A stretch of DNA of 50,000 nt from Chiloscyllium plagiosum. Taxonomy: Eukaryota. Positions 2,880 through 49,500 of the stretch are shown here, in pieces. The stretch's first letter is position 1, and every line of letters begins with the position of its first letter. The stretch is taken from NCBI RefSeq assembly GCF_004010195.1, contig NW_025214729.1, forward strand, positions 1-50,000, given 5' to 3'. Position numbers and translations under genes: made by a program. The notes below the pieces were generated by a model. That model was given only the letters and a program-made list of their open reading frames with translations. It was not told the origin of the DNA and did no database searches.

Positions 2880-3644
2880 GTAAGTAGATAATTTTAAGTG
2901 TCCCACATTGGGCTTGTGTAGAGTTTCCATCATCGCTCCAAGTAATAAATACAGATACTTTTATTCTGTTTTCTTTTGGAACTTTTTGGCAACATTGTAT
3001 CAAAAATACTGATACTGGGGTCCATACAAAGGGCTTTACTAGCAACAGGCATCTCTTGTTAAAAATCGGAAGTTTTGGTGCTGATTAAACGCCTTTTCGT
3101 TAACGAGTTTATAATTTATGGTCTTTTTAAATCCAGCTTACACAAATTGTTTTCATGATGCGTTTTGAGCCATGCAGCTTTATGCTAGGGTTTCGAGAGT
3201 ACATGAGATCATTTCACAAGGATCGCAGAGACAGAAAATGTTACCTGTATTCTCCCTCCCCTCCCCCCAAGTTACTGTACTGCGCAGCGTTTACAAACTC
3301 GAGTTGCTTTGCTCTTGATTTGGAACTTTCGGGTGCAGTGTATAGTAACTGTTTACTATGTAGATTTAAAATGCAAAACGACTGCTCTCGGACCCTCTTG
3401 TTACTTTGTTAACACCGATAGGAAACCTGACTATTTTTGATCGGTTATTGTTGTTGGTTCAGTGCAAAACTGCACCTTTTGAAGGTTGAATCCCATCCTG
3501 GCTTGCAACTTTTGTCCCCTTTTATTGAGCATTTCAGCTTTTGCTCGATGTGGTTCCACGGGTGGGAGCAGTTTTTCCAGCTCCTCATCCAAGTAGTCAA
3601 TGATTAATCTGGTAATACAGGCAAGTTTGATTGGGTTCTTCACT

Positions 3645-3878
3645 AAACAGAAAAAAAGTGGATGCTGGAAATCAGAAGAAAAAAACGAATTGCTGGGACA
3701 GCTGAGCAGGTCTGGCAGCATCTTTGGAGAGAAAGCAGAGTTAACATTTTGGTCCAGTGACTCTTCAGGAGTGAAGAAGCAAAGTTCTGAAGAAAGTTCA
3801 CTGAACCTGAAATGTTAACTCTGCTTTCTCTCCACAAATGCTGCCAGATCTGCTAAGTTTTCCCAGCAATTTCTTTTT
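3645..3878. mobile_element. Fold-back PLE-derived element (family A) with a decayed hammerhead motif
   Basis: Arms ~3687-3768 and ~3787-3873 are reverse complements. The right arm begins CTGAAGA-AAGTTCACTGAACCT-GAAATGTTA. Confidence 0.7.
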
Positions 3879-4790
3879 TAAATTGGACGTTGGGCAAGAA
3901 CCCATGTACGTCCATTTGCGATAGTACTTGGAATGTTGAATGGGTACCGTGGCTAGTTAACTAACAGCTTCAAACCCATTACTCCCGAAAACATTGTCAT
4001 TGTGCCATCGTGCTGGATCAGATCAACCAAAGACAAATTGGAGACTGGAACTTGGAATCTCTGCATACTGTGGCTCAGCTTTACAGCAGAATTACTTTAT
4101 TGGCATCACTTTTACTGTTGGCTATTTGTTTAGGGTCATGTGGTGGTTCTCTGCTTTGAGGGCAGAAGGGTGAGCTAATATTGCTCTCACTCAATACGAT
4201 ATTCAACGTCCTAGGTGCAATTAAGCATCTTAGTGAAAAATTGAGGAGTCCCCACAGTGGTATTCCTTCTATTAACTGATTATAGTGATGCTGATTGCAG
4301 CTATGTAGCCACCCACACAGTCCTGTTGAAACTAAAAGAGGAAATGGCAGCTGCTTGGGAATATATGGGGGTGGGAAAGATCCAAGAGAATTTCATACTG
4401 GACATATTTAGTGAATTGGGAGTTCTATTGCCATATAAGTGATATGTATATATGATCAGACTGAGATTTGTACAGCTGTCATCTTAACAAGCAGATTTTT
4501 AATATTGAACAATTTGTAATATGTCAGATAATTAACATGTTGGTAAACATTTATTTGTATGCTTATTTGTACATTTGTGTAGCATTTTGGGCAACCTTAA
4601 TTGGCAGTAATTAGTCTTTTTGCATCATTTACTGTGGGCTGGATGCCAAGATGCCCAAATTAAGTTTCGGGATTTTTTGCCAATGTTTTCCATCCTCCCT
4701 GCACCCTCATTCAATTTCCCATGATGGGAAGGACAGCCACTTTTGCTGGATAGCCTCAGACAGTACCATTTATTATTGACTGTTAAACAA

Positions 4791-5092
4791 AGTGGTTAGC
4801 ACTGCTGCCTCAGCGCCAGAGACCCGGGTTCAATTCCCGCCTCAGGCGACTGACTGTGTGGAGTTTGCACATTCTCCCCGTGTCTGCGTGGGTTTCCTCC
4901 GGGTGCTCTGGTTTCCTCCCACAGTCCAAAAATGTGCAGGTTAGGTGAATTGGCCATGCGAAATTGCCTGTAGTGTTAGGTGAAGGGGTAAATGTAGGGG
5001 AATGGGTCTTGGTGGGTCACGCTTCGGCGGGTCGGTGTGGACTTGTTGGACTGAAGGGCCTGTTTCCACACTGTGTAAGTAATCTAAATCTA
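4791..5092 (+). mobile_element. HE1 / V-SINE (tRNA-derived), slightly 5'-truncated
   Basis: B-box GGTTCAATTCC, V-domain GTGGAGTTTGCACATTCTCCCCGTGTCTGCGTGGGTTTCC, CR1-like 3' end GAAGGGCCTGTTTCCACACTG and an AATCT-type tail. Confidence 0.9.
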
Positions 5093-5104
5093 CAAAATCA
5101 AACT

Positions 5105-5205
5105 TGTTCTGAAGTGTCGCTAGATTGGAACATTAACTCTGCTTTTCTCTACAGATGCTGCCAGACATGCTGAGTTTCTCTAGCAAATTTCTGTTTTATT
5201 TCAAA
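5105..5205 (+). mobile_element. Single arm of a family A PLE-derived element
   Basis: TTAACTCTGCTTTTCTCTACAGATGCTGCCAGAC matches the right arm at 3815-3873. Confidence 0.6.
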
Positions 5206-5389
5206 TCAAACTTGGGGCCCATATCTTCCTAGGGTTTGATTTGCTAGTATTACATATGAAGGATTAATTGCTTCAGCGATTAAGTGTACATAAGAATATT
5301 ATAAGCCATCCAAAATCCCTCTACGCACGAGTTACTAAACTGAAGTCAGTGGTGGACTCATACCTCTTCTACCAACCCTCCCCTCCCCA

Positions 5390-6065
5390 ATCAGGGATGA
5401 CTTACTTAGACTCTGGTTGAAAGAGTTCTGAGATGGCTTATCAGCTCAATGTGATCTGCAAACTTTGTTGCACACTACTCTGGTGTTGCTTGAAGGGTTG
5501 AGCAGATGAGTTATTTTGGAGGTTTGTGTTCTCACTCCTTGGCTTCACACGTGCACAATTCTAAGCCCCACAATGCTTTCAGTGCCTTCCTGGATGAGCC
5601 GTATCAATTTTAATTGGTCAAGAGTCAGGGTCTCCAAGGAATTGGGGTATGATTTACCTCTTTGGGGTGTTCTGGGAATATTCTTAAAGCACTTTTGCTA
5701 TCTTCGTGGGAATCTCCTGGGACCAAGTTCTAATTAGAGCTGTCACTTTGGAAATCCAGTATTTGCAGACAAATGGCATGTTGCCCAGCAGAACTGGTTT
5801 TGAATAATTTGTGCCTTGATGCTGGGTAAGCTGACTTTGGGGAGGATGCTGCTGTTGGAGTTCCTTTCTGGCCACTGAATTTGAAGGATCTTGTTGAGCT
5901 CTTCCACTGCTTTTGAGATACTTGTTGTAGGTTGTCCATATCTCAGTGAATGGAGTGCTGATATCACCATTTCTTGATACACTATGACATTAGTCTTTTG
6001 TGCATTAACCTTGTTCTCAAAAACTCTTTCCCCAGTTGGCTGAAGATTGACCCGGCACATGTTAC
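5390..6065 (-). mobile_element. Decayed RTE-clade LINE 3' fragment
   Basis: ORF 5743-6060(-) reads VFENK...KILQIQW...SLPSI...IQNQFCWA, resembling the RTE C-terminal region LRKILxIxW...LPSI...QLRWAGH. Confidence 0.7.
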
Positions 6066-6458
6066 TTATTAGACTGAGAATCCCACGATCTAAATTCTGT
6101 TTTAATCTAAGTTTTTAATTTTCAGTAATCTTCACTAAAATACCTTTGTAACCAAGAGGCACAAACAATTATGTGAATGTGCAAAGTGCATCATTTTATT
6201 ATTGCTCTCTTGGTAACTTGATCAGCTGTTGTTTATCTTGTTTTTGGGAAAGTCTGATATATTGTTGAATATATCAGACAGTCAGTGGTTTTCTTGGGTC
6301 CTTGTATGTTTTGTTAAAAATATTAGGGAATCTGAAGCCACCTTGAAAATGTAACTTAAAAGGAGTCCTCACCTTTACATATTAAAGAGCCTAAACCATT
6401 ATATCCCATCCTAAAAGATGCAAGACTTGGTCTGAAGAAGGTTTGTTTAATATATCAT

Positions 6459-6748
6459 GGGCGGCACGGTGGCACAGTGGTTAGCACTGCTGCCTCACAG
6501 CGCCAGAGACCTGGGTTCAATTCCCGCCCAGGCGACTGACTTGTGGAGTTTGCACATTCTCCCCGTGTCTGCGTGGGTTTCCTCCCACAGTCCAAAGATG
6601 TGCAGGTCAGGTGAATTGGCCATGCGAAATTGCCCGTTGTGTTAGGTAAGGGGTAAATGTAGGGTATGGGTGGTTTGCGCTTCGGCGGGGTGGTGTGGAC
6701 TTGTTGGGCCGAAGGGCCTGTTTCCACACTGTAAAGTAATCTAATCTA
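6459..6748 (+). mobile_element. Full-length HE1 / V-SINE with 7-bp TSD ATATCAT
   Basis: Starts GGGCGGCACGGTGGCACAGTGGTTAGC; has A/B boxes, V-domain and (AATCT)n tail. ATATCAT at 6452-6458 and 6749-6755. Confidence 0.92.
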
Positions 6749-6814
6749 ATATCATTACAACTAAGTGACACTGTAACCCTTTTGTTCTAAATTCTTCTGG
6801 TCCTGTTGCACCAC

Positions 6815-6849
6815 CACCTGATGAAGAGGCAGTGCCTCGAAAGCTAGTG
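6815..6849 (+). ncRNA. Minimal type I hammerhead ribozyme motif (PLE type)
   Basis: CAC-CTGATGA-A-GAGGC-agt-GCCTC-GAAAGCTA-GTG: stem I CAC/GTG, perfect 5-bp stem II, palindromic AGCT stem III, predicted cut after UA (6846). Activity is not shown by sequence alone. Confidence 0.75.
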
Positions 6850-7524
6850 CTTCCAAATAAACCTGATGGACTAGAAACTGGTATTGTGATCTTTAACTTT
6901 GTCCATGCCAGTCCAACACCAGCACCTCCAAATCATTGTTAAAAATGAATCTTCAAAGGGACAGTGATTGCAAAAAATGGCAGTTAAGTTGTTTTTGTTC
7001 ATTTGCACTCGAGTATTTTGGGTTCCTTTATTGATGAAAGCCAAAAGATGATGTATTCACTTGTTTTGCTTTTCAGACTTTGCTACTGATTATTTGTTTT
7101 ACATTTTTATGCTGAAAATTATCTGTATGCAATCCCAGTGGAACGCTGATGTTTGGAACTTTATGTACTTCTGTAGAGATTTTAACATTTCTTTGGGCTT
7201 TGTCTGACTATGTGAACCAATGTGTCATAATTGTGTGAATCACATGACTATATTTAAGCTGTTGGTTGTTTACCAAAAAAAATTATCATGTTAAACACTC
7301 AAAGTGGAAAAGTAGCACAGAACATGCAGCTGCTCTGGACTGCCTCCACATTGTTATGGGGAGGTCTTGCGTAAAGGTAGTAGGGTTTACCTAATGACCT
7401 AAGATCTATGTGTAGGCCGAGAAGCAGCATTGGCTGGTGGCAAATGCTGTTAGCAGAGCAATGTTCTAATATTTTTCACTGAATTAATACTTCGAACTTT
7501 CCTGGCAGTTGCTTGGGCTAGATA

Positions 7525-7700
7525 CATTGTGTGAGATTTGAATCATATAGATCAGGTTCAATCTATGCTTTTGCTAATCTCTGCCTTGATAGTGGGGTGC
7601 CAAAGGTGTCCTCCATGACCCCAGGCTAGGGAGGGAAGGACCAGCTAGATTTACTGATTATTATGCATGAACTCCTGTTGGAAGGGTGTGTTGAATGGAG
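7525..7700 (+). mobile_element. Old unclassified SINE-like repeat
   Basis: B-box-like GGTTCAATC followed by CCAGGCTAGGGAGGGAAG. Similar decayed sequence at ~12945-13080 (+) and ~33760-33895 (-). Confidence 0.4.
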
Positions 7701-8866
7701 GCGGATTCAAGGGAATATTCATTTCAGCAAAATACCAATAAAAAAAAGTTAATAGTTGAACCACAGTAGACGGACTGAAACATAAACTTAATGTAACAGA
7801 AGTCATTCTGAACCAATGTCACTTAGCATCTCGCACAAAGTAATTAGAATTGCCTTTCAACTGAGTCTTGGTGGCAACTGCTTGGGAGCCATTCAAGAGG
7901 AAGTTGTATGGGAGATTCAAAGTTGTATAGTTGAACTAAATTATGCAGTGAGCTTTTGTGTTTTGTGAGGTGGATAAAGGTAGGATGAGGGTTTATTAAG
8001 AATAAGAGGCTATGACACGGCTCTGGTGGAATAGCTTGCTGTTACCATTTAGATGGACAGTCTTGTCTTTTAGCAGATGATAATGCCTGTGAAATTGAAC
8101 CTCCTTATGAATATGTGCTTTCTGAAGAAGGTTGGGACTTTTGATAAAAAGTAGGGTTAGGAAATTGGTTTTTATCATATTTTCAATAACTTGCCCTTAA
8201 TTACTAGAAATTAAGAACCCTTACAAGTAGGTCTGGATTTCAGTTTGATGGCTGTGAATTGTGTGTAGTACAATTTGGAGAGCTGTCAATGGGACCCTAA
8301 TTATATAAAATAATGATTTGACTAGTTTGCAAATTTATGGGCTCAGTCAGGTAAGTGTTTTAGTTGAACATCTGCAGGTAGAGGCCTGTGGTGGAACCTG
8401 GGGATTTGTGAAGTGCAGCACACACTATGAATGGGACTAAGCAGATGCCTTCACAGGGACTGAGAAGTTGGAATTGTAATTGTTTTCTAGCAGCTAGTAT
8501 TTACAGTCTAAGTTGGGATCTTGAATTATTTGGTTATTACTGAAACAGAATACTATTACCAATTTTAACTCCTGTCATTTGATGTAAATATACAGCTGTA
8601 TACTCTTTAGTCAGTTGCTTTTTAAACCTGAGAGTTTATTAACTACTACTTAAAGTTGTGACTGCTTTTGTGGTTTTGATGCCAGTATACACCTTATATT
8701 TATATAGCTTATCATTGAAAGCTGTGTTTTCCTGAGCATAGTGTATTGCAGCACAATGAGCTATGCTAACAAACAGTATCAAATGTTTTTTGCATGTGCA
8801 TGCCTGGAGTATACTTTTGTTTTGCTGAGAAAGAAATAGTAACAGATCTTTTTTCCTTCCCTATAG

Positions 8867-8951
8867 TGTATTTTGGGACCTTTACTGTGCAGCTCCAGAA
8901 AGGCGAGACACGTGTGAACATTCAAGTGAAGCGAAAGCCTTCCATGATTAT
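8867..8951 (+). CDS. SSBP3: SSBP3 exon 4: (C)[28 protein letters not shown]
   Basis: ttttttccttccctatag acceptor, 85 nt, donor TAT|gtgagt. Completes the 92-aa N-terminal region in frame. Confidence 0.97.
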
Positions 8952-14883: not shown

Positions 14884-15155
14884 GAGGAGAAAGTGAGGAC
14901 TGCAGATGCTGGAGATCAGAGCTGAAAATGTGTTGCTGAAATGTGTTCCCCACTCCGGCCTATCACCGTCACCTTGACCTCCCTCCACCTATCGCAATTC
15001 CAACGCCCCTCCCCCAAGTCCCTCCTCCCTACCTTCTATCTTAGCCTGCTGGACACACTTTCCTCATTCCTGAAGAAGGGCTTATGCCCGAAACGTCGAT
15101 TCTCCTGTTCCTTGGATGCTGCCTGACTTGCGCTTTTCCAGCAACACATTTTCAT
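14884..15155 (+). mobile_element. PLE 3' fragment (family C) with an inverted terminal piece and hammerhead motif at 15066-15101
   Basis: 14884-14940 is the reverse complement and extension of the element's own 3' end. Motif CTGAAGA-AGGGC-ttat-GCCC-GAAACGTC. Inserted into the CR1 tail (ctgtacat|...|ctctatgac). Confidence 0.8.
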
Positions 15156-22822: not shown

Positions 22823-25524
22823 AAACAACTAACCAACCTTGAGCTGAGAGAATGTTTGTTTTTCATGTCTGCAGAGCTTGGCGTAGCTGATGCCCACTGC
22901 AAGCTGCCTTTTGTTTGTAGAATGTTGCTCATTGTGTGCTCCCAGGATGACATGGCCACGTCTAATAGGGGCCAGCGCTTGGATGAATCTTTGTGTAAAT
23001 TTGGGGCAGTTATTGCTTTTTAATTTGTACTCTGAGCTGTCTAACTCCCTCCTGGGAGAATAGGGTGGGGTTTTGGAGGGTGGGGTCAGCAGCCTTGGGG
23101 TTTAAAAAAATCCTAATAACAAATTTGTAGCTTTAGATGGTGTTTGGGCCTCCATCCAATTCTTTCCACGATCTCTGTTTCTACAGGACAAAAGGAAGAC
23201 AAAAGAGGGAAATTTGCAATTCGTATTGGGGGCTGCAGCATGATTTGCTTTGTGAAACAACAAAAAAAAGCTTGAGTTATTTAGACTCTTCCATTCAAAT
23301 CAGGCATCTGCCCCTTATGTGCTCTTGGTGAAACATCGTAAACTCTTTGCTTGCTTTCAAAATTAGTGGTGTATCTCGATTGATTTTTCTTTAGTTTGGA
23401 GTTTAGAATGTCGGGGGAGGGTTGGTTAGCCACGATCCTGCTGAGATTTCTAGTGAGCACTCAGCGTTAAACCCTGGTGCACCGTGGGCTGGTTGTGTGG
23501 GGGAGGGGGCTTCGTTAAGGCACATCTTACCTCCAGGATTTTGCAATCTTCCACTGATTGGGTTTGTTCAAGGTCTTGTGAAATATTTACTTATTGGTTC
23601 AAGCAGAGAACTGCTTCAGCAAGTAACTACTGCAGTGAAGTTTTTTGCGATACTGACTCAACTATCCTTTGTGTCATGCTATTCAATTGCATTGTGTATC
23701 CCCACATTGAACATCATCTCCAAGTACAGGCTGACGTGGTTTTAAAGTTACCTTAAATTTAAAACCCATTTTTTCTAAGGCAAATGGGCTGTGTTTGCCA
23801 CTAAAATGCCAAATTTAACCGAGGGGACCTAAGCAAATGTCACCTGATAAACCATACTGCAATTAAAGTGGATTTTGATCTCTCCTAATATGCCTTTTCC
23901 AACTGATATCATCAGCGAATGGTTGTTTTTTACCCTTTGCCTGTCTGCCCTGTAGTCCCCAATCTTTCCAGATTAAGCCATTGAGATCATGTGGAGTGCC
24001 CCCACTATTGCCTGAGCTAAACTAACACAGCAGATCATACAATTTTTGTAGCCTACTCTGTTGCACAGTACTGTAAATAGGAGGAGGTAATTATCTACTA
24101 AATCTAACATTGGCCAGGTTTTTGTAGCTGACTTTTGAAAAGTGCTAAATAAATTAAATTGTAGAGTCCCTGTGACCTGTTTTTATAATCCCAGCAAGCC
24201 TAAACATATTCTTGTTGTTTGAAACCCCTTGTTAAGTGGTGTCTTGAAAAGTGCCTGGCCTTACGCCTGCGTTGTGAAATTTGGCATTCTTTATCATTTG
24301 AGCGATTTCTGTAGGAAGAGAACCACGTTTTTAAAATTCTGAGCTTCCCCAGATGTTAAGGATTTATCGCACAGTGCTGCCTGGTTGGTCAGCACATACT
24401 AAAAGCTCTTCATCAGATCTTAACTTTTGTAAGTGCCTTTAGCACAGTTTAGTCCTGACCCTAAACTCTGTTTACATCTCTGTAGAAGAGGATATTCCTT
24501 CATTCCAGATTCTTGCCTAACCTGACTAGTGACTTCCTTTTGTCTGTTCATTATGGAATTCACTTGGGACTGCACTGCTCTATCAGGCAGACTGTCGATA
24601 GATATTGTAGTCTAGCACAAGCCTCTCAACTCGCCTGAAGATCTGAAATATTTCATTTGCATTTAATTATTGAATTCCAGGTTTTTTTATAATTCTATAA
24701 ATGCGTTCTATTTTTGACCTGAAGGCATTATCAACGTTTTGCAACTTACCTATTTCTGAAAAATTTCTCTTCACTGAGTCTATTATTTAAATTAGCCACT
24801 ACCTCACCTCCATATTTACTGTTCTTATTCCATAATTTATTTTCTCGGCTACCAACTGTCCACTTAAACATCTCCCTCACCCCTCTAGCAATACAAGTCA
24901 TCTGTTTACTGAGGCAGGAATCTGTCTGCTTGCACAGTCGTTAATTTGCATTTCATCATTAAATACAAACTTCAGTTTGTCCTCTTCTTCCTAATCGACA
25001 CTTTTTACTGGGGAAACGAACAGCATTTTTAGAAAATATTTTCTTATCGACCTATTCAGGGATGTTATTATATACCTTTTGAAGCATGTGGGATTTGAAC
25101 CAGGATTCTCTCTCTGAGGTAAAAATTTTATCTTGCACCACAAAGAGCCTCAAAAATTGGCCATTTAAAATTTATTGGATATGGGCATAACTGGCTATAG
25201 CAGTATTTATTGTCCATCCTTAATTGCTGAGGGGGCAGGTAAGAGCCAACCCATGCAGCTGTATATCTGAAGGCCCATGTAGTCCAGAGCAGGTAATGAC
25301 AACAGATTTCATTTTGATCTCTTTGTCTTTATTATCACTTCATAATCCTTCTGCCATTTTGCTAAACCGTGTCTGAAATCCAGTCCTGTCTGAGTCACGG
25401 CTTCCTCCAATTAAGTATTGGGAAGATGGAGGACATTGCCTTTTGCTCCTACCACAAACAATGCTGTTGCTGATAATTCCATATCCTCCTCCTTTTATTG
25501 TCAGGTTATATTACATGTCCGAAA

Positions 25525-25738
25525 AGTGAGTTGCTGGAAAAGCACAGCAAGTCAGGCAGCTTCCAAGGTGCAGGAGAATCGACGTTTTGGGCATAAGCCC
25601 TTCAGAAATGTGATGGTGAAGGGCTTATGCCCGAAACGTCTATTCTCCTGCTCCTTGGATGCTGCCTGACCTGCTGTGCTTTTCCAGCACCACTCTCTTC
25701 GAAACTGACCTCCAGCATCTGCAGTCCTCATTTTCACC
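25525..25738. mobile_element. Fold-back PLE family C element
   Basis: Arms ~25532-25604 and ~25617-25689 are near-perfect reverse complements; GAAGGGCTTATGCCCGAAACGTC is in the right arm. Confidence 0.8.
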
Positions 25739-26441
25739 TGTATTAGACTGTTCACAAATACTACCATTCTAATTAGTTTCTTGACCTGCCTGCTCTGTTA
25801 CCATTAAAATGTGTGTTCTGTCCCATTCACTTATCACTCCTGCTTCTCTGTCTGACTTTAGCTGCTTGGTCTCAGATCTCCAACTTAAAATTCTTATTCT
25901 TGTGTTCGCATCTCCTTTTAACTCTCCCCTTCCAAATTTGTATTCTTATGACCTCTCTCTCCACTGCTTCCAATAAATCTTTATTTCTCAGTCCAGATTA
26001 ATTTGGTTAATATAAATTCATGACATGTGAGCACTGTTCCCTGGATCAGTATTTATTGCCAATCTGTAGTTATCCTTGAAGTTGTGCTGGACTGCCTTCT
26101 TGAACCACAGCAGTCCATTTGATGAAGGTGCACCCACGATGCTGTTAGGGAGGGGATTCCATGATTTTGATCCAGTGACAGTGAAAGAATGGTGATGTAT
26201 CTCCAAGTCAGTTAATGAGCGGCTTGGAGGAGAACTTGCAGATGGTGGTGTTTCCAAGTATCTGCTGTCCTTGTCCTTCCAGTGGTAATGGTTGTGTGCT
26301 TGGAAGGTGCTGTCTAAGGAACTTTAAATTTCTGCAGTGCATTTTAGAAATAGTTGCTACTGACTATTGGTGCTGGAGGGAGTGAATATTTGTGACTGTT
26401 GTGCCAATCAAAATAAGCTGCTTTGTCCTAGGTAGTGTCTA

Positions 26442-30026: not shown

Positions 30027-30487
30027 AGGCAAAAGTGAGGACTGCAGATGCTGGAAACCAGAGTTTAGATCAGAGTGGTGCTGGACATCCACCAATGTCA
30101 TTGTATCCGTTGCTTCCGATGCGGTCTCATCTACACTGGGGAGACTGAATGCCTCCTTGCAGAGCGCTTCAGGGAACATTCTGGGACACCTGCACCAATC
30201 AACCCCACTATCCTGTGGCCCAACATTTCAACTCCCCCTCCCACTCTGCCGAGGACATGCAGGTCCTGGGCCGCCTCCACCGCTGCTCCCTTACCACCCG
30301 ACGCCTGGAGGAAGAATGCCTCATCTTCCGCCTCGGAACACTTCAACCCCAGGGCATCAGCGTGGACTTCACCAGTTTCCTCGTTTCCTCCCCCTCCACC
30401 TTTCCTCAGTTCCAACCTTCCAGCTCAGCACTGTCCTCGTGACCTGTCCTACCTGCCAATCTCCCTTCCCACCTATCTCTGACCTAA
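30027..30487 (+). mobile_element. Penelope-like retroelement fragment: GIY-YIG endonuclease coding relic plus inverted family C terminal piece, with 14-bp TSD
   Basis: CIRCFRCGLIYTGET..LAERFREH (frameshift) ..PVAQHFNSPSHS..RRLEEECLIFRLGTLQPQGISVDF, typical of the PLE GIY-YIG domain. AGTCTAGTTT(G/A)AAT at 30013-30026 and 30488-30501. Confidence 0.88.
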
Positions 30488-33400: not shown

Positions 33401-35358
33401 CTACTGGTTATAGAAAATAACATCAGAACCAAACGAAATCCAGTCAAAGAGGAGTGCACATGCAGATCACCAAATAAGTTGCTTAATAGCAACAAGAAGA
33501 GGGTGCCTGGGACAATTGTAATACCCCCTCCTGTCACTTCAGGCAAGAATTGCTCATTTGGAGTAGATTAGAAAAGAAGAATGACTCTTTCGAGGTTCAT
33601 TGAATAGTTGTTGGTTACAATCATTGTTGACCTGTTACATAGCAAAGCTACTTCATTGCTGAGTATGAGCGTTGACAGTGATCATTGACAGGTTACGCAA
33701 CCTGGGAGCCATGTCAAATTGGCCTTATTCTACCCTCCTTTAGTGTTCCCATGTGTGTGCTTAACAACCAAGTTTTTAGATAGCAATCAGGAGGAATTAT
33801 AATTGTTCCCAACTTAGAAACATGTACAGCAGTTGTACTCTGTGCCATCGCCTTGGCCAAGAATTGGTGAGCTTGGCCAGGACCAGGGATAGACTACGAG
33901 GTTGACCAGAAACAAATACCCATGCAGATGGGGCAGGGTGCTGACAAATCTGAAACAATGTTTATACATAATATGGACAAGAAACTTCGTGCTGGGAAGT
34001 CTAAATGTTTTAGAAAATCTTATGTTCTTACCCTGCAGTTAATCTTCCAAAGTAAAGTAGGATCCTACCTGTGTTTTTTTTTTGTTTGGTTAAAATTAGC
34101 AGTAAAATATATTCAGTTGTGAGGGCTAATATGCATCTTGTCCACTTCATTGTCTGCTGCAGGGGTCCAGTGTGTCTCCAGTTTGGAAGGATACCATTTG
34201 CTCAGTGTGATTGGGTTTGTGGGGCTAAGGGCAAGTGACATCTCTGGGTGGGTGGATGGGCAGCATGAAAGGGAAGATGGGTATTGTTATTGGTATATAT
34301 GGTTGTGCTGGTGAATGAGGGTATTTTCAGGGAGATGGTGAGTGGTGATACTAAGCCACTTTCCTGATGTGTGGCCATTGGGACCGTTCTGTGGGATGTT
34401 CATGTCATCCTATTGACACATGCAGCTACTTGATATGTTTTTTGGTTCTGCTGTTGCTAAAATGCATGAGCATAGCCATAGAGGTTGCCAAGGGAATTGA
34501 CTAAAAAACACTTCACAATGTGTTTTATTTTAACACCAACTTTGCAGCCTCAAGTGCTGTCAATAAAGCTGAAAGAATGTCACCTGTCCTCAAAAAAATT
34601 GAGGATCCAGCCTTGAAAGGTTTTTAAGTGAGAAATAATTTTGAATATTGATAACAAATTTCCTGTTAATTGTGTATACAGATTTTGAGATTTTTCATGT
34701 AAATGCATTTATTTTTGGAAGGGAAGTACTTGAGTGTGATCTCGTTGAACATATCTGTCTGTTGATTTTTCTTTGAGTACAGCTTGCATGGAAAAAAATG
34801 GCAGCAAATATTTACTTATGATGCACATTGCTTCCCGTTCTCCCTTCCCTTCCCCATCTGCCCTTCCCCTTCCAACTTGATAGTTATATTACAATGCATT
34901 ACTAATGTTTTAAATTTCTAGGACATGTATTGAGAATCTGCAAAGTATGGCTGGTGGTGAGCCACATAAATTATTTCATACCGTGTTGTTTATAACATTT
35001 AACCATCTTAGTCTTATTTCATTCTGTAAAGATGCTCTTAGTGTTAAGTTCCTTTGCCACAGGTAGGATCTTGATGTATTTGTTATATTGTGATTTGTTG
35101 AATGCATGTGGTTTGAAGTTATAGATAAATAATTTTAGTGAAAAACAAATAAAGTCAAGTAGCTGGACTTGAATACCAAAATGGTTGTAATTTAACAGAT
35201 GTATGATGTGTACGTTGGTGAATATCTTGCAGGCAGGGATGGGAAAGTGACAAATCTTGCATTCAATGAGCAATGGACTGGATGTGAGTTCATCCACTCT
35301 CTTGTAAAATGAGTTGCTCACAATTGAAACCCAACATTGTGCATATACTCTCATCCTG

Positions 35359-35570
35359 GAAAAAGTGAGGACTGCAGTTGCTGGAGACCAGAGTTGAAAA
35401 ATGTGATGCTGGAAAAACACAGCAGGCCAGGCAGCATCCAAGGGGCAGGAGAATCGACGTTTCGGGCATAAGCCCTTCCTGAAAAAGGTCTTATGCCCGA
35501 AACGTCAATTCGCCTGCTCCTTGGATGCTGCCTGGCCTGCTGTGTTTTTCCAGCATCATATTTTTCAACA
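35359..35570. mobile_element. Fold-back PLE family C element with perfect 16-bp TSD
   Basis: ATATACTCTCATCCTG at 35343-35358 and 35571-35586. Arms ~35393-35477 and ~35485-35569 are reverse complements. Confidence 0.85.
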
Positions 35571-37182
35571 ATATACTCTCATCCTGTCCAGTTGGGCTAA
35601 ATTCAGATTCACTTGCTTGTTGGGCATTGCATTCAGAAGGCAGATACTCATTCCTTACGATGAATGAGTAAGTTACAGATGTGGAGGGGAGGCAACTGTG
35701 AGTAATTTGGGTGAATTGGTAAGCACTGTGAGGTGGAATACAATTAATGAAGCCCTGATTATACTGGCAGACAGATTCCTGCCCTCTAGAGTTGGAATGA
35801 AATAGGTCTGATTTGTCCAATTGAGGTTGTATCATGTAAATGTGTGAAACATATGCTTCAGCCAATTCCAGTTTTCCTAACGTAAGATGTTTTGAATGTG
35901 CACATGCATGCATTGTTCACAGCCCAGTAAATAAATGGACTGTGGTATGGCCATGTATTATAAAGGTCAGAGGAACGTCTTATGTAGCAAGTGCCTCATC
36001 AGCATTTGAGAGTGGGGGATGGGGTGGGGGAAGCTCGGATGAGGAAAGGTAGACCCTGAGCTAATTCCACCCTCCTAAGAATGGGTAGAAGGATGCAGTG
36101 ATGTGATCCAAGGTGGATATGAAAGGATAATTGTGGAAGAGGTCCAGTTGGAAGATGCAGGATAGGGTGCTCTTGTGAAAGAACCAGCTAAGTTTCTTCT
36201 TCCTGGTCTGGAGATCTGCTTTGGAAGAAGTCTGTTTCTGGATGTTGGTTTATGACTTGATACAACTTAGTTGTATTTGCCCTATGTTTTCACCTTGCTC
36301 AAATTGAATTGCTGTCTCTTTCCTGACTGCGATTTTACAAACTTTTGTTATGTTCTATATTACAGCTAAAATGCAATATAACATTAAAAGACAATTATAA
36401 TTGTCATTGTGGTGCAAAGGTCTCAGTTTCCATCTTAACTGGGGATAGTTGAAGCATCACATGTTGATCAAACATACTACATTCTACTGGTTAGATCAGT
36501 TTGTAATATTAGCCCAGAAAATTAAGTGCTTGTGATGGTAATACCTATGTATACTTGGATCTATAATGAATGTCTGTTAAATCTACTGTGTTGCTCATGT
36601 TTAGTTCTTGTGGGAATTGATTGAAGTTTTGTTTCATCAGGTACAAATAACCCTACAAAGGCAAAAGCTCACATGACAGATCACCTTTAGAATAAACCTA
36701 TAAGCAAACCTCTGCAGAATTAATTTGCTTACACGACTTTGATTTTGCATTTCTATCAAAGTACAAGTTTCTGTGAGCTTTGGTAATGTGCAGTCACTTC
36801 ATTATCAATATGGAAGGATGCATTATAAGTATAAGATTATATTACATGAGTTTGTGGCAGGTGACTAGAAGACTGGCAAAAAAATTATTTATTTCACCAT
36901 TTTCTTGTTTGGTCAGTCAATTTCAAAACTGAAGTTTCTGCTCAAAGGATTTTCTCTTGCTTGCTTTTGTCCTTGGTGTCTTTTCTTTTCATAATGAGCA
37001 CTGTTTCTCATCTGGTATCTAAAATTGATTTGAATAGATCTGCCATCCTGTTTTACATGAAAACCTACCAAAGTTATTTAAAAATCCCTCATTGAAATGT
37101 TGTGTGATCACAATGATAAGTGAGACACAGGGGACCTTAATACTGTGTATTGGCCTTTGTCTGACAGCCAGGTTTACTGCAA

Positions 37183-40082: not shown

Positions 40083-40339
40083 CAAAGTGTACTGCTGGAA
40101 AAGCACAACTGGTCAGGCAGCATCCGAGGAGCAGGAGAGTCGACATTTCGAGCGTAAGCTCTTGAGTAGGAACATGGGGGGAGGCCCATGGGCACTTAGG
40201 CCTCCCCCACACTCCTGATGAAGAACTTGTTCGAAACATTGATCGTCCTGCTCCTCGGGTGCTGCCTGACCAGCTGTGCTTTTCCAGCAGTACACTTTTT
40301 GACTCTGATCTCCAGCATCTACAGTCCTCGCTTTCTCCT
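40083..40339. mobile_element. Fold-back PLE family C element with an internal second hairpin
   Basis: Arms ~40085-40165 and ~40215-40297; CTGATGAAGAACTTGTTCGAAACATT at 40215; spacer GGGGGAGGCC...GGCCTCCCCC. Confidence 0.78.
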
Positions 40340-41689
40340 AGTGAAATCCATTGAGCCTACTCATCCATTTATTACAATTGTGGCTGATCTTGGACTTCAA
40401 GTCCATTTTCTTACTGCCTCCATATTCCTTGAAACACTAAACATTGGTCTACCTCAACCTAAATGCAGTCTGAGAAAACATGAAAATTCAATCTGAATGA
40501 ATGACACTCAGTGCACAAACCCTGGAGTGGTCCCATCTGAACTGCTCAGGCTTCTGATAAAGCTTTCCTCAAGGTCAGTATGTCCTTCCAGAACAGGTGT
40601 GGGCTATTTTCTAATCGAGCGTTATCTCAGTAGGACTCGAACCCAGGCCTCCTGGACCAAAGCTTGGGACACTAACATAGCATCATAAGAGACCTAAAAG
40701 TTTGTTTTAACCAGGGTTTATTATAGGTGAAACATGTCCTTTACCCTCTAGATGGCTAGGTGCTCTAGGTCCCCTGCATTATTAGGATTTTAGGATGAAG
40801 CCCATCAGGACCAAGCCGCCTGTCAGCATGCATTTCTAATAATATGTTCAATATCACTTCTCTGTGATTATAGTTTTCATGAATTCCTTCCTTCCTTTCC
40901 ATTTCCTGATTTACAGCTATCACTGAAATGCTACTAATCAGCCTGGTCAGATGTGTTATGACTCCTCTACCTGGTGGGATTGAACCTGGGCCTCCTGTCT
41001 CAGATATAGGGGCACTACCACTGCATCACATGAGCAACCACCCTGTATCTTTTCTAGTGATGGACAATACCTGTTCAATTATTTTCTGTTACCTTATTTT
41101 CTATTATTAATTCGTTAGACTCACCTACAGGACTAATGTTCACTTTGATGACTTTTAACCATCTGTAGAAACTCTGATTGCTTTTATATTTCGATCCAGC
41201 TTTCTCTTGTGCTCATTTTTCATTATTCAGATCAATTATCTGACTTGCCACTCACCTTTGGACAAAAGTATGTTTTTTTTTTCAAAGTTTGATGTTATCC
41301 TTTAACTATTTTTAATTAACCATCCATGTCTTGTGAAACGAACTCTGCATTGAACTGATCTGTGTTTAACTTCATCCACTTGCATTTAGCTCATTATCCA
41401 TTTCACATTGACAGATTTTGGCTACTTAATCTCTGGTTTAGCATCATTATTATTTGGCAAGCAATTACTGTTTTTTGTAGTAGGGTTTTCTGTATTTTCA
41501 CTCTTTGCATACAAAAGTATGCCTTGGCTTCTCTCGTGAATGGCTTTCCTTTAACCTTAAGGACATCCTCCGTCCTAGACCATGCACATTTTATTCCCCC
41601 CCTCTTTTCTCCATTCTCCAATAGAATGTGTTTCCCTACCAACCCTATTAGTTCTGTTTGAAAATTCTTAATCAAATTATCACTTTTCT

Positions 41690-43140: not shown

Positions 43141-43163
43141 TTCAAATAATTTATTTCATGGTT

Positions 43164-43553
43164 TGGAGATGCTGGTGTAGGACTGGGGTGTACAAAATTA
43201 AAAATGACAGCATCAGGTTATAGTCCAACAGATTTAATTGGAAGCACTAGCTTTTGGAGCGCTGCTCCTTCAGGTGGTTGTGGAGTATAAGATTGTAAGA
43301 CACAGAATTTATTGCAAAAGTTTACAGTGTGATGTAACTGAAATTATATATTGAAAAATACCTTGATTGTTTGTTAAGTCTCTCACCTGTTAGAATTCTT
43401 TATAATTTCAGCTACATCACACTGTAAACTTTTGCTATAAATTGTGTCTTACAATCTTCTAGTCCACAACCACCTGATGAAGGAGCAGCGCTCCGAAAGC
43501 TAGTGCTTCCAATTAAATCTGTTGGACTAGAACCTGATGTTGTAATTTTTAAC
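43164..43553. mobile_element. Large fold-back PLE family B element with 14-bp TSD
   Basis: Arms ~43195-43348 and ~43401-43553 are reverse complements. TTTATTTCATGGTT at 43150-43163 and 43554-43567. Confidence 0.85.
43471..43505 (+). ncRNA. Minimal type I hammerhead ribozyme motif (PLE type)
   Basis: CAC-CTGATGA-A-GGAGC-agc-GCTCC-GAAAGCTA-GTG; predicted cut after 43502. Confidence 0.75.
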
Positions 43554-44019
43554 TTTATTTCATGGTTCAGGCTTGCTTTCAGCAGGTATGAGAACCATAT
43601 CTGATTTTTTTTCATTTTCTTTTTTTTTGGGGAATACTCTATAGTCCTTAATTATCAATGAAATTGACTTAGGTGTATTTCGCGAGATTGCGCATCTGGA
43701 AATTATCTTCAAAATAGAATATGCAAAGAAAGGAGCTACATATAGATATGGGCCAGTGGATCATAATCACTCAGATTTGTTAATCCCACATCATACTAGG
43801 TAGATTATGAGTACTTGAATAATAGAGCACAAAAATAAGCCATTTCACCCTTCTTTCCAATTGTATTGGTTTGTGATTGTTCTGATTTTTCACAAGCTTG
43901 ACATCTCTTGTTTGCTGGATTCATTTTTCTTTAAATGTACAATTTCAAAGCATGTTTTGTGAAAGTCAAGGAGAGTATGCCTTGAATACACCAGTAATAG
44001 AACTCTAGAAAATTGGAGC

Positions 44020-46549: not shown

Positions 46550-49500
46550 AGTTTGGTTTTATATAAAAATTTTCTCTTTTACCAAAACAAACCAAAAGTT
46601 ATAAAAGTACAGAAAAGTAGAAATAATACTGTGCTATTATATTATGTTGCAGTAACATTTACAATAAACTGCCTTCTATTCTTCAAGATGCCATTGTCTC
46701 ATATTTTCTTAACCCAAGTTAGCATAAATTCAAATTAAATAAAATAACTAAGTTACAATCCACTAAAATTAAATTACATTGCATTGTACTGTATTACATT
46801 ACTCCAGTCACTGCGCCTCCATCAAGACTCCAGTCCATGGGAGCAACAGTTATTATTGTACCTGTATCCCCGGACCACCACATACGGCCCTCGTAGCTAT
46901 ATAAAGGCCCGAGTCAGTACTGCCGACAGATCCATGTCTATGTAATTTAGAAAGGGCTGCCATGTCTTATAAAATTGCTCTCTTCTGTGGCGAACCATAC
47001 TCCTCAGGTAATCTTGAGGGACGTGCTCCATCACAAGTCTGTGCCACCCTGCAAGATCAGGAAACTTTTCTGATATCCAGTTCAGTAGATGTTCTTCCTC
47101 CCGCAGTATGTAGGAATATTGAATAACCTTTTCCTGTGCTCACCCAAAGAGGAAAGTTTCAGTAGTCCCAAAAGGAGGGACGCAGGTCCTCCTTAACTTC
47201 CATTCACAGGATCCTCTCCAGCTCATTCATTGTGGCCCCCCCAGTACCCGTGGATCTTGTAACAGGACCAAAGCAATGCGTAAGGGTGCCAACGCGGTTT
47301 TTACATTTGGGACATTTCAGGAAAGATCCTTTCTTAAACTTTGCTAACCTCTCTGACGCCATATGAACCCTGTGGTGGATCTTCAATTGAATCAGTATGC
47401 CTTATTCCATATTGAAGTTTTCTTTACATTCCTCCAAATGTCCTCCCATGTTTCAGATGAGATTTCTTTCCCCTAATTCCTGATTCCAAATCTCATGGAG
47501 TCTCTCCATATCCCCCAGGGCATTCCCTCTCTGCAGATGATATGTGGTACTAACAGAGAGCGCCCTCACACCAGAGCACTCTTTGTTCTGTATTTGACTT
47601 GTAGGGCTGGGCCAAGAGCATGGTCACTTTCTGTTTGTAATCCCTAACCTGAAAATATCAGAAAACGTCTCTATTATGAATTCCGTATTTCTGACCTAAT
47701 TGGCTGAAAGGCGTCCAAGACCTCTCCCTCAAATAACTCTCCCACATAGGTGATCCCTTTACCCTCCCATGCTCTGAAGCTGGAGTCCATTGACCCCAGT
47801 CTAAATCCTGGGGCTCCCACTAACTGGGTGAACGGCGAAGTCTTAAGCAAATTGCCCTCACCCTGCCACATTATTCTCCATGCCTTTTATAATAATTTGG
47901 ATTCTCTGTGCTCAACTGCAGATCTCATCTTATCCAATGAACAGTAAGTTTATGAGGGGACATCTCATCTGCGAGGCCTCCACATCAAGCCATATCGACT
48001 TCGAGTCATTCCACACCCACTCGTCTACATATGACAACAGGGTGCCTATTTGGTATCTCTTCAGATCTGGTAGGACCACAACAGGCCCCCCAACACCCCT
48101 GCACCCCCCTTAATATCCTGTGGAAGTTGCACCATGGTAAATTTAATTTGGGGGCACCTACGGCACCAAATAAATGATCCAAGCTATCCCGCAAACCTCC
48201 GCGGCACCTGTTTGTGTAATAACAACAGGAGCTTCCTTTATAGGATATAACAGCCGAGGAAGAACATTCGTCTTAATCAAGGCTATACGGCCGAGCTATG
48301 AAATGGGTAGTCCCTCCCATTACTGCAATCCTGCTTTATTCTCTCAAACAGCTGCACAAAGTTAGCTCCGTACACCTGTGGAAAGTAAGGGGTAATAAAA
48401 ATTCACAGATAGCGAAAACCTTCCTGTGACCATCTCAAAGGAAACTCCATTCCATCCTCCAGCTTCGGTACTTCCACCAATCTCCTCACGGGCATGACTT
48501 TGGGTTTTGTGAAATTTATCCTGTATCCCAAAAAGCAACCAAATAATTTAATTTTTTTGTATTAGCCAGGGTATGGACTTTTCAGGGTTGTCAAAAAAAC
48601 AGAAAGACATCGTCTGCATAGAGTGACTTTGTGTTCCCCAACTCCCACCTTTGGTGCCATTATTTCAGGGTCCTTTCGGATAGCCTCCACCAGTGGACTT
48701 TTCAGGGTTGTCAAAAAAACAGAAAGACATCGTCTGCATAGTGACTTTGTGTTCCCCAACTCCCACCTTTGGTGCCATTATTTCAGGGTCCTTTCGGATA
48801 GCCTCCACCAGTGGTTCAAGTACCAAGGCAAACAGCAGCGGTGACAGGGGACATCCCTGTTGGCTGCACCACCTCACTGCTTGAGTTAACCCCATTCGTG
48901 ATAACCGCTGCCTTGGTGTCTTTGTATAACACTGCCACTAACCTGGTGAAGGCCTCTCCCAGGCCAAAATAATCTAGAGCAGCAAAGAGATATGATCATT
49001 CCAACCAATCAAAAGCCTTTTCTGCATCCAGGGAGACCACCAAACCAGGAATCATTCTCTACTGACATATTTGCACTAATTCAACACCAGCCTGATATTG
49101 TTGGAGGAGCTGCGGCCCTTGATTAAAAACCCATCTGGTCCTTTTTTTATAATAATGTACAACACCTTCTCCAACCTCAGAGCCAACACCTTTGATTGGA
49201 TTTTCAAATCCACATTCAGTAATGAGATGAGCCTTTATAATGTGCAATCCTTGGGGTCTTTCCCTCTCTTTTAAAATAAGGGAGATATTATCCTCCCTTT
49301 GAGAGGGTGGAAAGCAGCCCTGGCTAAACATCACCAGCAGTGGATCAGCCAACATGTGTATGAACTCCTTGTAAACTCGGGAACCCGTCTGGACCGGGTG
49401 TCCTTACCACCTTGGAGCTGCCTTACTGCCTCTTACACCTCCTGTACTGTCAGAGGTGCATTTAAAAGGGAGGCGTGAGCTGCGTTTATACTGGGGAAGT

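Follow-up and report, generated by a model that had tools for sequence, protein, structure and literature searches.

A minimal hammerhead motif in an SSBP-family intron of Chiloscyllium plagiosum is probably an inert passenger of an old Penelope-like element

We analyzed a 50,000-nucleotide stretch of Chiloscyllium plagiosum DNA (contig NW_025214729.1; hereafter the window) and find on its forward strand, at 6815-6849, a minimal type I hammerhead motif, recognized from the sequence, its fold in isolation, and a motif scan. With a probability of roughly 0.87, we consider it the terminal-repeat hammerhead of an old, 5'-truncated copy of a Penelope-like element (PLE) lying in an intron of an SSBP-family gene, where it is an inert passenger that does not cut the pre-mRNA.

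The 5' part of the motif consists of CAC (6815-6817) and CTGATGA (6818-6824) with an extra A (6825) after A9. Stem II pairs GAGGC (6826-6830) with GCCTC (6834-6838) around the loop AGT (6831-6833), and the 3' part continues through GAAA (6839-6842), GC, T (6845), A (6846), and GTG (6847-6849), with the predicted cut site of the 35-nt motif at 6846|6847. Stem I has 3 bp and stem II has 5 bp, while the palindrome AGCU at 6842-6845 replaces helix III. Minimal hammerheads of this kind have been described in the pseudo-LTRs of metazoan PLEs by Cervera and de la Pena 2014 (PMC4209133), and, as far as its letters go, the window motif satisfies all the sequence features of that published form: the core CUGANGA...GAAA...UH is present, helix II is closed by G10.1-C11.1 (here G6826-C6838) with the extra A6825 after A9, helix I is short, and helix III is absent or minimal and palindromic. 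It differs by its stem I of 3 bp and stem II of 5 bp, the Schistosoma minimal motifs in that paper having 4-5 bp in stem I. The initial annotation had claimed an intact minimal hammerhead with a full core, stems I and II, and AGCU in place of stem III, and the letters agree, with a stem I of only 3 bp. The hammerhead search it proposed gave a divided answer: an Rfam scan of the window at E<=1 returned seven matches, none to a hammerhead family and the top six to miRNA models on fold-back repeats, while a minimal-hammerhead motif scan of 770 kb of the genome was positive, with 19 motifs.

The host gene is defined by exons at 2127-2182, 2519-2591, 2818-2879, and 8867-8951, with GT donors throughout, AG acceptors on the last three, and a single reading frame; exons 2 and 4 match human SSBP2 structures (E 1e-10 and 8e-16, respectively). 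The four exons spliced in one frame, together with the SSBP2 matches, therefore place the motif in sense orientation in intron 3 (2880-8866, forward strand) of an SSBP-family gene, probably the paralogue SSBP3 named in the initial annotation. Its cut site is 2,021 nt upstream of exon 4, confirming the position originally proposed (intron 3, sense, about 2 kb before exon 4). The claim that the motif has no antisense arm is also borne out, the longest complements across intron 3 being just 8 nt; but 15 of 27 sampled genomic copies are likewise solo, with no other copy within 1 kb, so being solo is common. The contig (G000:C101324) is high-numbered and not chromosome-scale, and a DNA search gave no second near-identical locus. 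At 48574-48814, on the reverse strand, the window also holds an exact tandem duplication of about 120 nt that may be recent or an assembly artefact, and that lies inside what are presumably LINE-like ORF remnants.

Around the motif, we find the 3' end of a 5'-truncated Neptune-type PLE (6321-6935) that was later split by a SINE. The upstream piece, from the pseudo-LTR region of the terminus (6321-6458, forward strand), has 70-86% matches to many genomic copies, whose coverage starts at about 6321, and the downstream piece (6756-6935, forward strand) ends at the family's common 3' end; in uninterrupted genomic copies the two pieces are contiguous and collinear. The intervening tRNA-type SINE (6459-6748, forward strand), probably of the HE1/V-SINE kind, is identified by repeat families D2, D3, and D5 and by its junctions, and is flanked by a target duplication of 7 bp (6452-6458 and 6749-6755). 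Because the SINE splits the Penelope fragment, the PLE must be the older of the two. This nesting is usable as a relative-dating marker, and four further copies of the SINE lie in the window, near 4800, 16940, 19370, and 44310. A related organism (organism B), whose flank differs by about 2.5% (17/686), has contigs that run from the unique intron into the same 3' end of the element, and the insertion therefore predates the split from that organism; these contigs stop at 6911-6915, short of the motif, in whose 35 nt about 0.9 changes would be expected at this divergence.

The 3' ends of PLE copies in this genome are bimodal: 13 of 30 copies stop at 6931-6936 and another 12 at 6897-6905, about 33 nt earlier, which defines an optional tail of about 33 nt (6901-6935 on the forward strand of the window). 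Such a tail, 30-40 bp long, has been described for PLEs (PMC8557442, PMC11167929). A fold-back pair of the same family, located by repeat and motif scans in intron 4 (43158-43556, one arm on each strand), has a tail-less forward arm with an intact motif (43471-43505) and a tailed reverse arm with a 3-nt core deletion and a change of G12. The genome thus has both the optional tail and the inverted truncated copies of Neptune-type elements.

We further looked for the protein-coding part of the element. In a copy of the motif's own subfamily (L021/L171), a frame with a CxxC linker and a GIY-YIG-like motif lies upstream on the same strand, and a search with this fragment turned up 27,829 first-look candidates; 150 of them were scored, and 20 loci were returned. 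The terminus lies downstream on the same strand in 14 of these 20, is present only inverted and upstream in 4, and is missing from 2. In one locus (L195), a 620-codon frame lies some 750 nt upstream of the terminus and contains the motifs DKG, YIDD, and CxxC together with one like GIY-YIG; this is the only real long frame among the fetched loci, the others being mostly runs of N. The CX2-5CxxC linker before the endonuclease can be read by eye in L021 and L191-L195. In the Atlas clusters closest to the L192 frame (score 0.97), 45-76% of the members have HTH_animal and 22-35% have GIY-YIG. Pfam searches with the frames of L021, L192, and L195 and with the window frame at 30149 gave no families, and a PDB search with the L195 frame gave no matches, so we base the clade call on the Atlas clusters and on motifs recognized by eye. 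The window frame belongs to a decayed stretch (30069-30482) that looks like the C-terminal portion of an endonuclease of Penelope type and has many relatives among the loci retrieved.

This layout fits Neptune as defined by Craig et al. 2021 (PMC8557442): Neptune PLEs have an RT, a CX2-5CxxC linker, and, at the C terminus, a GIY-YIG, as in the related loci here; they also have a hammerhead in the pseudo-LTR, copies that are inverted and 5'-truncated, and a tail of 30-40 bp, as in this genome. The window copy itself has no ORF left, and a terminal repeat downstream of an RT and GIY-YIG ORF is seen in related copies only (the 14 of 20 loci, L192, and L195); the assignment is made by layout, without an RT tree, and Nematis also has the linker motif. 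The proposed Penelope origin and dimer-type minimal hammerhead are supported by the endonuclease linkage, the Atlas clusters, and the published consensus features.

Copies of the motif are very numerous. The core and stem I pattern has 25,389 matches in the 3.56-Gb genome and none in a reversed control, and a pattern with a paired-type stem II has 12,970 matches, one per 274 kb; 14 genomic 35-mers are identical to the window motif, and one sister variant alone has 1,563 matches. In a sample of 80 stretches of 10 kb at even spacing (770 kb after leaving out N), we find 55 fragments of the window copy's Penelope family; the 19 motifs of this sample come from several families, against 0, 0, and 1 for the three shuffled versions. 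Between subfamily variants, two pairs of stem II are exchanged on both sides, an apparently compensatory pattern. These counts exceed the 4,000 of coelacanth and 9,000 of Xenopus given in PMC4209133, although the counting method differs. The word "shark" and three cartilaginous-fish genus names are absent from one supplement file of that paper, while a shark family may stand in its File 1; a literature search on hammerhead ribozymes, sharks, and Penelope returned a single match, which uses "shark" for the shape of the motif. Most of the 19 sampled motifs come from a second repeat family with a CUGAAGA/CUGAUGA-type core and a 4-bp stem II, which also occurs in the window (15067-15131, 25520-25747, 35349-35571, and 40084-40340), mostly as fold-backs, and is the source of the spurious Rfam miRNA matches.

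Folding predictions argue against cleavage by the window motif on its own. The isolated 35-mer folds with stems I and II (-9.1 kcal/mol, z -1.99), and the predicted pairing probability of stem I is about 0.87 in the 35-mer, 0.13 in 76 nt, and 0.02 in contexts of 184-501 nt, that of stem II being 0.65-1.0 overall and 0.65-0.89 in context; the software used ignores tertiary contacts and co-transcriptional folding. Self-duplexes of the AGCU palindrome are predicted at -4.5 to -6.4 kcal/mol. The nearest intact motif found on the same strand is the one in the intron 4 fold-back, 36.6 kb downstream, so the single window motif differs from a retrozyme, with its tandem units and at least two complete hammerheads. 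It also lacks the stable monomer fold with full helices I and III that domesticated intronic hammerheads have; the intronic ribozymes of RECK, CTCL, DTNB, and CPEB3 are sense-oriented and single-locus, with full stems and loop contacts. The RECK, CTCL, and DTNB hammerheads of amniotes (review accounts in PMC6155905 and PMC6765202) and the HDV-like ribozyme of CPEB3 lie, as the window motif does, in introns upstream of an exon, but they are conserved across host lineages, whereas the window motif is a high-copy minimal repeat with no conservation shown.

Published cleavage assays on related motifs bear on this question. In PMC4209133, a single Schistosoma minimal motif did not cleave, and dimers and trimers cleaved little. 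For Anolis, Frangieh et al. 2024 (PMC11167929) report that single-motif RNA of the Poseidon element PAc, at 500 nM and together with the protein of the element, was cleaved in vitro in a core-dependent way, which allows for cleavage in trans. For the window motif, pairing in trans with the RNA of another copy might occur in principle, and would be slow against splicing. Non-LTR retrozymes (Li et al., bioRxiv 10.64898/2026.07.22.740005), reported there in one chondrichthyan and with 42-44% of Xenopus copies in introns, are Penelope-derived type I hammerhead repeats, as here, but are built of at least two motifs in tandem, whereas the window copy is single. Elsewhere in the genome, two identical intact motifs lie 355 nt apart on the same strand in a retrozyme-like tandem (L041/L042, G000:C1:17711310-17711699); real dimer cleavage is more plausible for this tandem than for the window copy. 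The initial annotation's further claim, that the motif cuts the intron co-transcriptionally, is not supported, given the missing helix III, the stem I probability of 0.02 in context, and the partner 36.6 kb away; core decay and the RNA reads described below count further against it.

To follow the fate of the motif after insertion, we counted differences against the commonest letter in copies picked without regard to the motif. In 28 of 30 subfamily copies, selected solely on their upstream DNA, the core differs at 32/308 positions (10.4%) and the downstream flank at 126/1331 (9.5%), and a smaller count on 20 copies gives 10.5% and 10.4%, respectively. The 80 evenly spaced stretches yield 27 motif-covering copies out of 50, with 34/297 differences in the core (11.4%) versus 95/968 in the flank (9.8%), the latter biased low because these copies were anchored on that downstream flank. 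Ten of the 27 have an intact core, and 4 are fully intact; this could rise to 5 or 6, as a 2-nt insertion may have led to misalignment of two copies. Counted as subfamily copies, only 2 of the 27 are fully intact. The AATAAA downstream of the motif shows decay close to that of the flank (13/168; 7.7%). Genome-wide, 359 subfamily copies keep the 5' half of the motif, 123 the 3' half, and 21 both, where independent neutral decay predicts 19-28 perfect copies; the half-match counts are approximate, as some may belong to a sister subfamily. The catalytic core is therefore not preserved after insertion and decays at the rate of its flank.

The window copy itself has no changes in the 35 nt of the motif and 14 in the 146 positions outside it (about 10% divergence), with a Fisher p of 0.043 before allowing for its having been picked as intact; the chance of no change in its 30 constrained sites, 0.049, is likewise uncorrected for selection on intactness. 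Within a subfamily of some 1,600-2,300 copies, this copy ranks among the best-kept 1-2%; it was flagged because it is intact, and the total of perfect survivors shows no excess. As the core decays like the flank, an intact sequence is not by itself enough to identify a functional intronic ribozyme in this genome.

Ten nucleotides after the predicted cut site, the element has a poly(A) signal, AATAAA (6856-6861, forward strand), followed by a GT/T-rich stretch. We examined about 2% of one poly(A) single-cell RNA run (X21) with the same species label and find 340 reads on 6755-7600, all partial. Most are only 90-95% alike (294), one reaches at least 99%, and 319 of the 326 reads covering 6866 lack the window copy's private letter there; this sample has no read in the unique flank (6958-7600). 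The low identity and the empty unique flank indicate that the reads derive from other copies. A-runs begin at 6871, 6873, or 6877, 10-16 nt after AATAAA, in 254 of the 340, mostly with the first mate on the reverse strand, as oligo-dT priming predicts, and 275 extend upstream into the 5' half of the motif. At least 189 reads must therefore have the 5' half as well as a poly(A) tail and run across the cut site. In the genome, an exact-pattern search, which variant copies could escape, gives no match for an A-run after the commonest flank. With tails that this search does not match and that start 10-16 nt after AATAAA, the termini of this Penelope family are likely real poly(A) sites of uncut RNAs, as seen on the transcripts of other copies. 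Loose-end summaries suggest that G12 and the G-C pair are both intact in only about 55 of the 275 reads; most seem to come from imperfect copies. Read starts and ends show no pile-ups, but 3'-tag reads cannot show a cut product of about 30 nt. No cleavage rate follows from these data, because the products are too short to map and the reads seem to be mostly of imperfect copies.

Poseidon PAc of Anolis (PMC11167929) offers a close parallel, a vertebrate Penelope hammerhead with a tail and uncut RNA in RNA-seq, as here; it differs in belonging to another clade, in an ORF that starts within the motif, and in having demonstrated in vitro cleavage. Its catalytic mutants still inserted in vitro, and the anole RNA-seq reported there has no read ends at the cut site. 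Among the listings and passages searched, which are those outside subscription journals, no publication connects the Penelope hammerhead with a poly(A) signal, so such a link may be in print.

These observations can be brought together as follows. In an active tandem element, two motifs may pair through the AGCU palindrome and so make the missing helix III, and the paired motifs would then cut 10 nt before the poly(A) signal. Selection would have kept the motif in master elements, as the compensatory stem II variants suggest, and not in scattered copies, of which the window copy is likely among the 1-2% staying perfect by chance. On its own in intron 3, it would pair stem II but only rarely stem I, and the intron would be spliced out uncut.

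A chance resemblance to the hammerhead, at best barely conceivable, could appeal to the Rfam result, to a fold z of only -2, and to the bare core pattern, which has 4 matches in the window against 1.5 expected, a weak excess. We reject it: 25,389 genomic matches against none in the reversed control, 19 sampled motifs against 0, 0, and 1 in shuffles, two-sided compensatory variation in stem II, and agreement with the published consensus leave no place for it. It is very unlikely that the motif works as a ribozyme, whether domesticated or active by accident, and cuts intron 3 co-transcriptionally, by itself or in trans, so as to tune SSBP splicing in the manner of CPEB3. Amniote intronic hammerheads and CPEB3 are precedents for such a role, and the copy has an intact core and stems in sense orientation, no complementary arm, and a motif kept better than its flank (nominal p 0.04); its palindrome could form a self-duplex, and family RNAs exist as possible partners in trans. 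Weighing more heavily are the missing helix III, the 3-bp stem I that hardly forms in context, the failure to find a partner within 36 kb, the lack of a genome-wide excess of perfect copies, and the at least 189 of 340 family reads that seem to span the cut site, mostly from imperfect copies.

A different function for the same insertion is that the poly(A) signal, not the ribozyme, is the working part, with AATAAA at 6856-6861 occasionally ending SSBP transcripts in intron 3 to give a short RNA of exons 1-3. The A-runs in 254 of 340 reads, with no genomic A-run after the commonest flank, and the retention of both AATAAA and the GT/T-rich stretch in the window copy speak for it. We nonetheless hold it to be quite unlikely for this locus, as the reads come from other copies by their identity, their lack of the private letter, and their absence from 6958-7600, and as the window copy is altered just after AATAAA at 6866, 6874, 6877, and 6883, the signal itself decaying about like the flank. 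An old, inert terminal-repeat hammerhead remains our preferred reading of the motif.

The single locus matters little: roughly 13,000 motifs are similarly intact, and their class was described in 2014. The poly(A)-site behavior of the Penelope family is the one lead worth following: polyadenylated RNAs that end uncut just past the motif bear on the in vivo role of Penelope hammerheads, and premature intronic polyadenylation is a better-grounded candidate host effect than cleavage. An unlikely proposal, poly(A) use having been seen for other copies, is that in this genome the Penelope terminus serves as a functional poly(A) site right after a hammerhead that needs a dimer to cut. If true, dimer cleavage 10 nt before AATAAA in tandem elements would strip off the poly(A) signal and switch between polyadenylated and cut RNA forms, and tens of thousands of scattered termini would be cryptic transcript ends, of which those lying sense in introns could truncate host RNAs, as for SSBP after exon 3.
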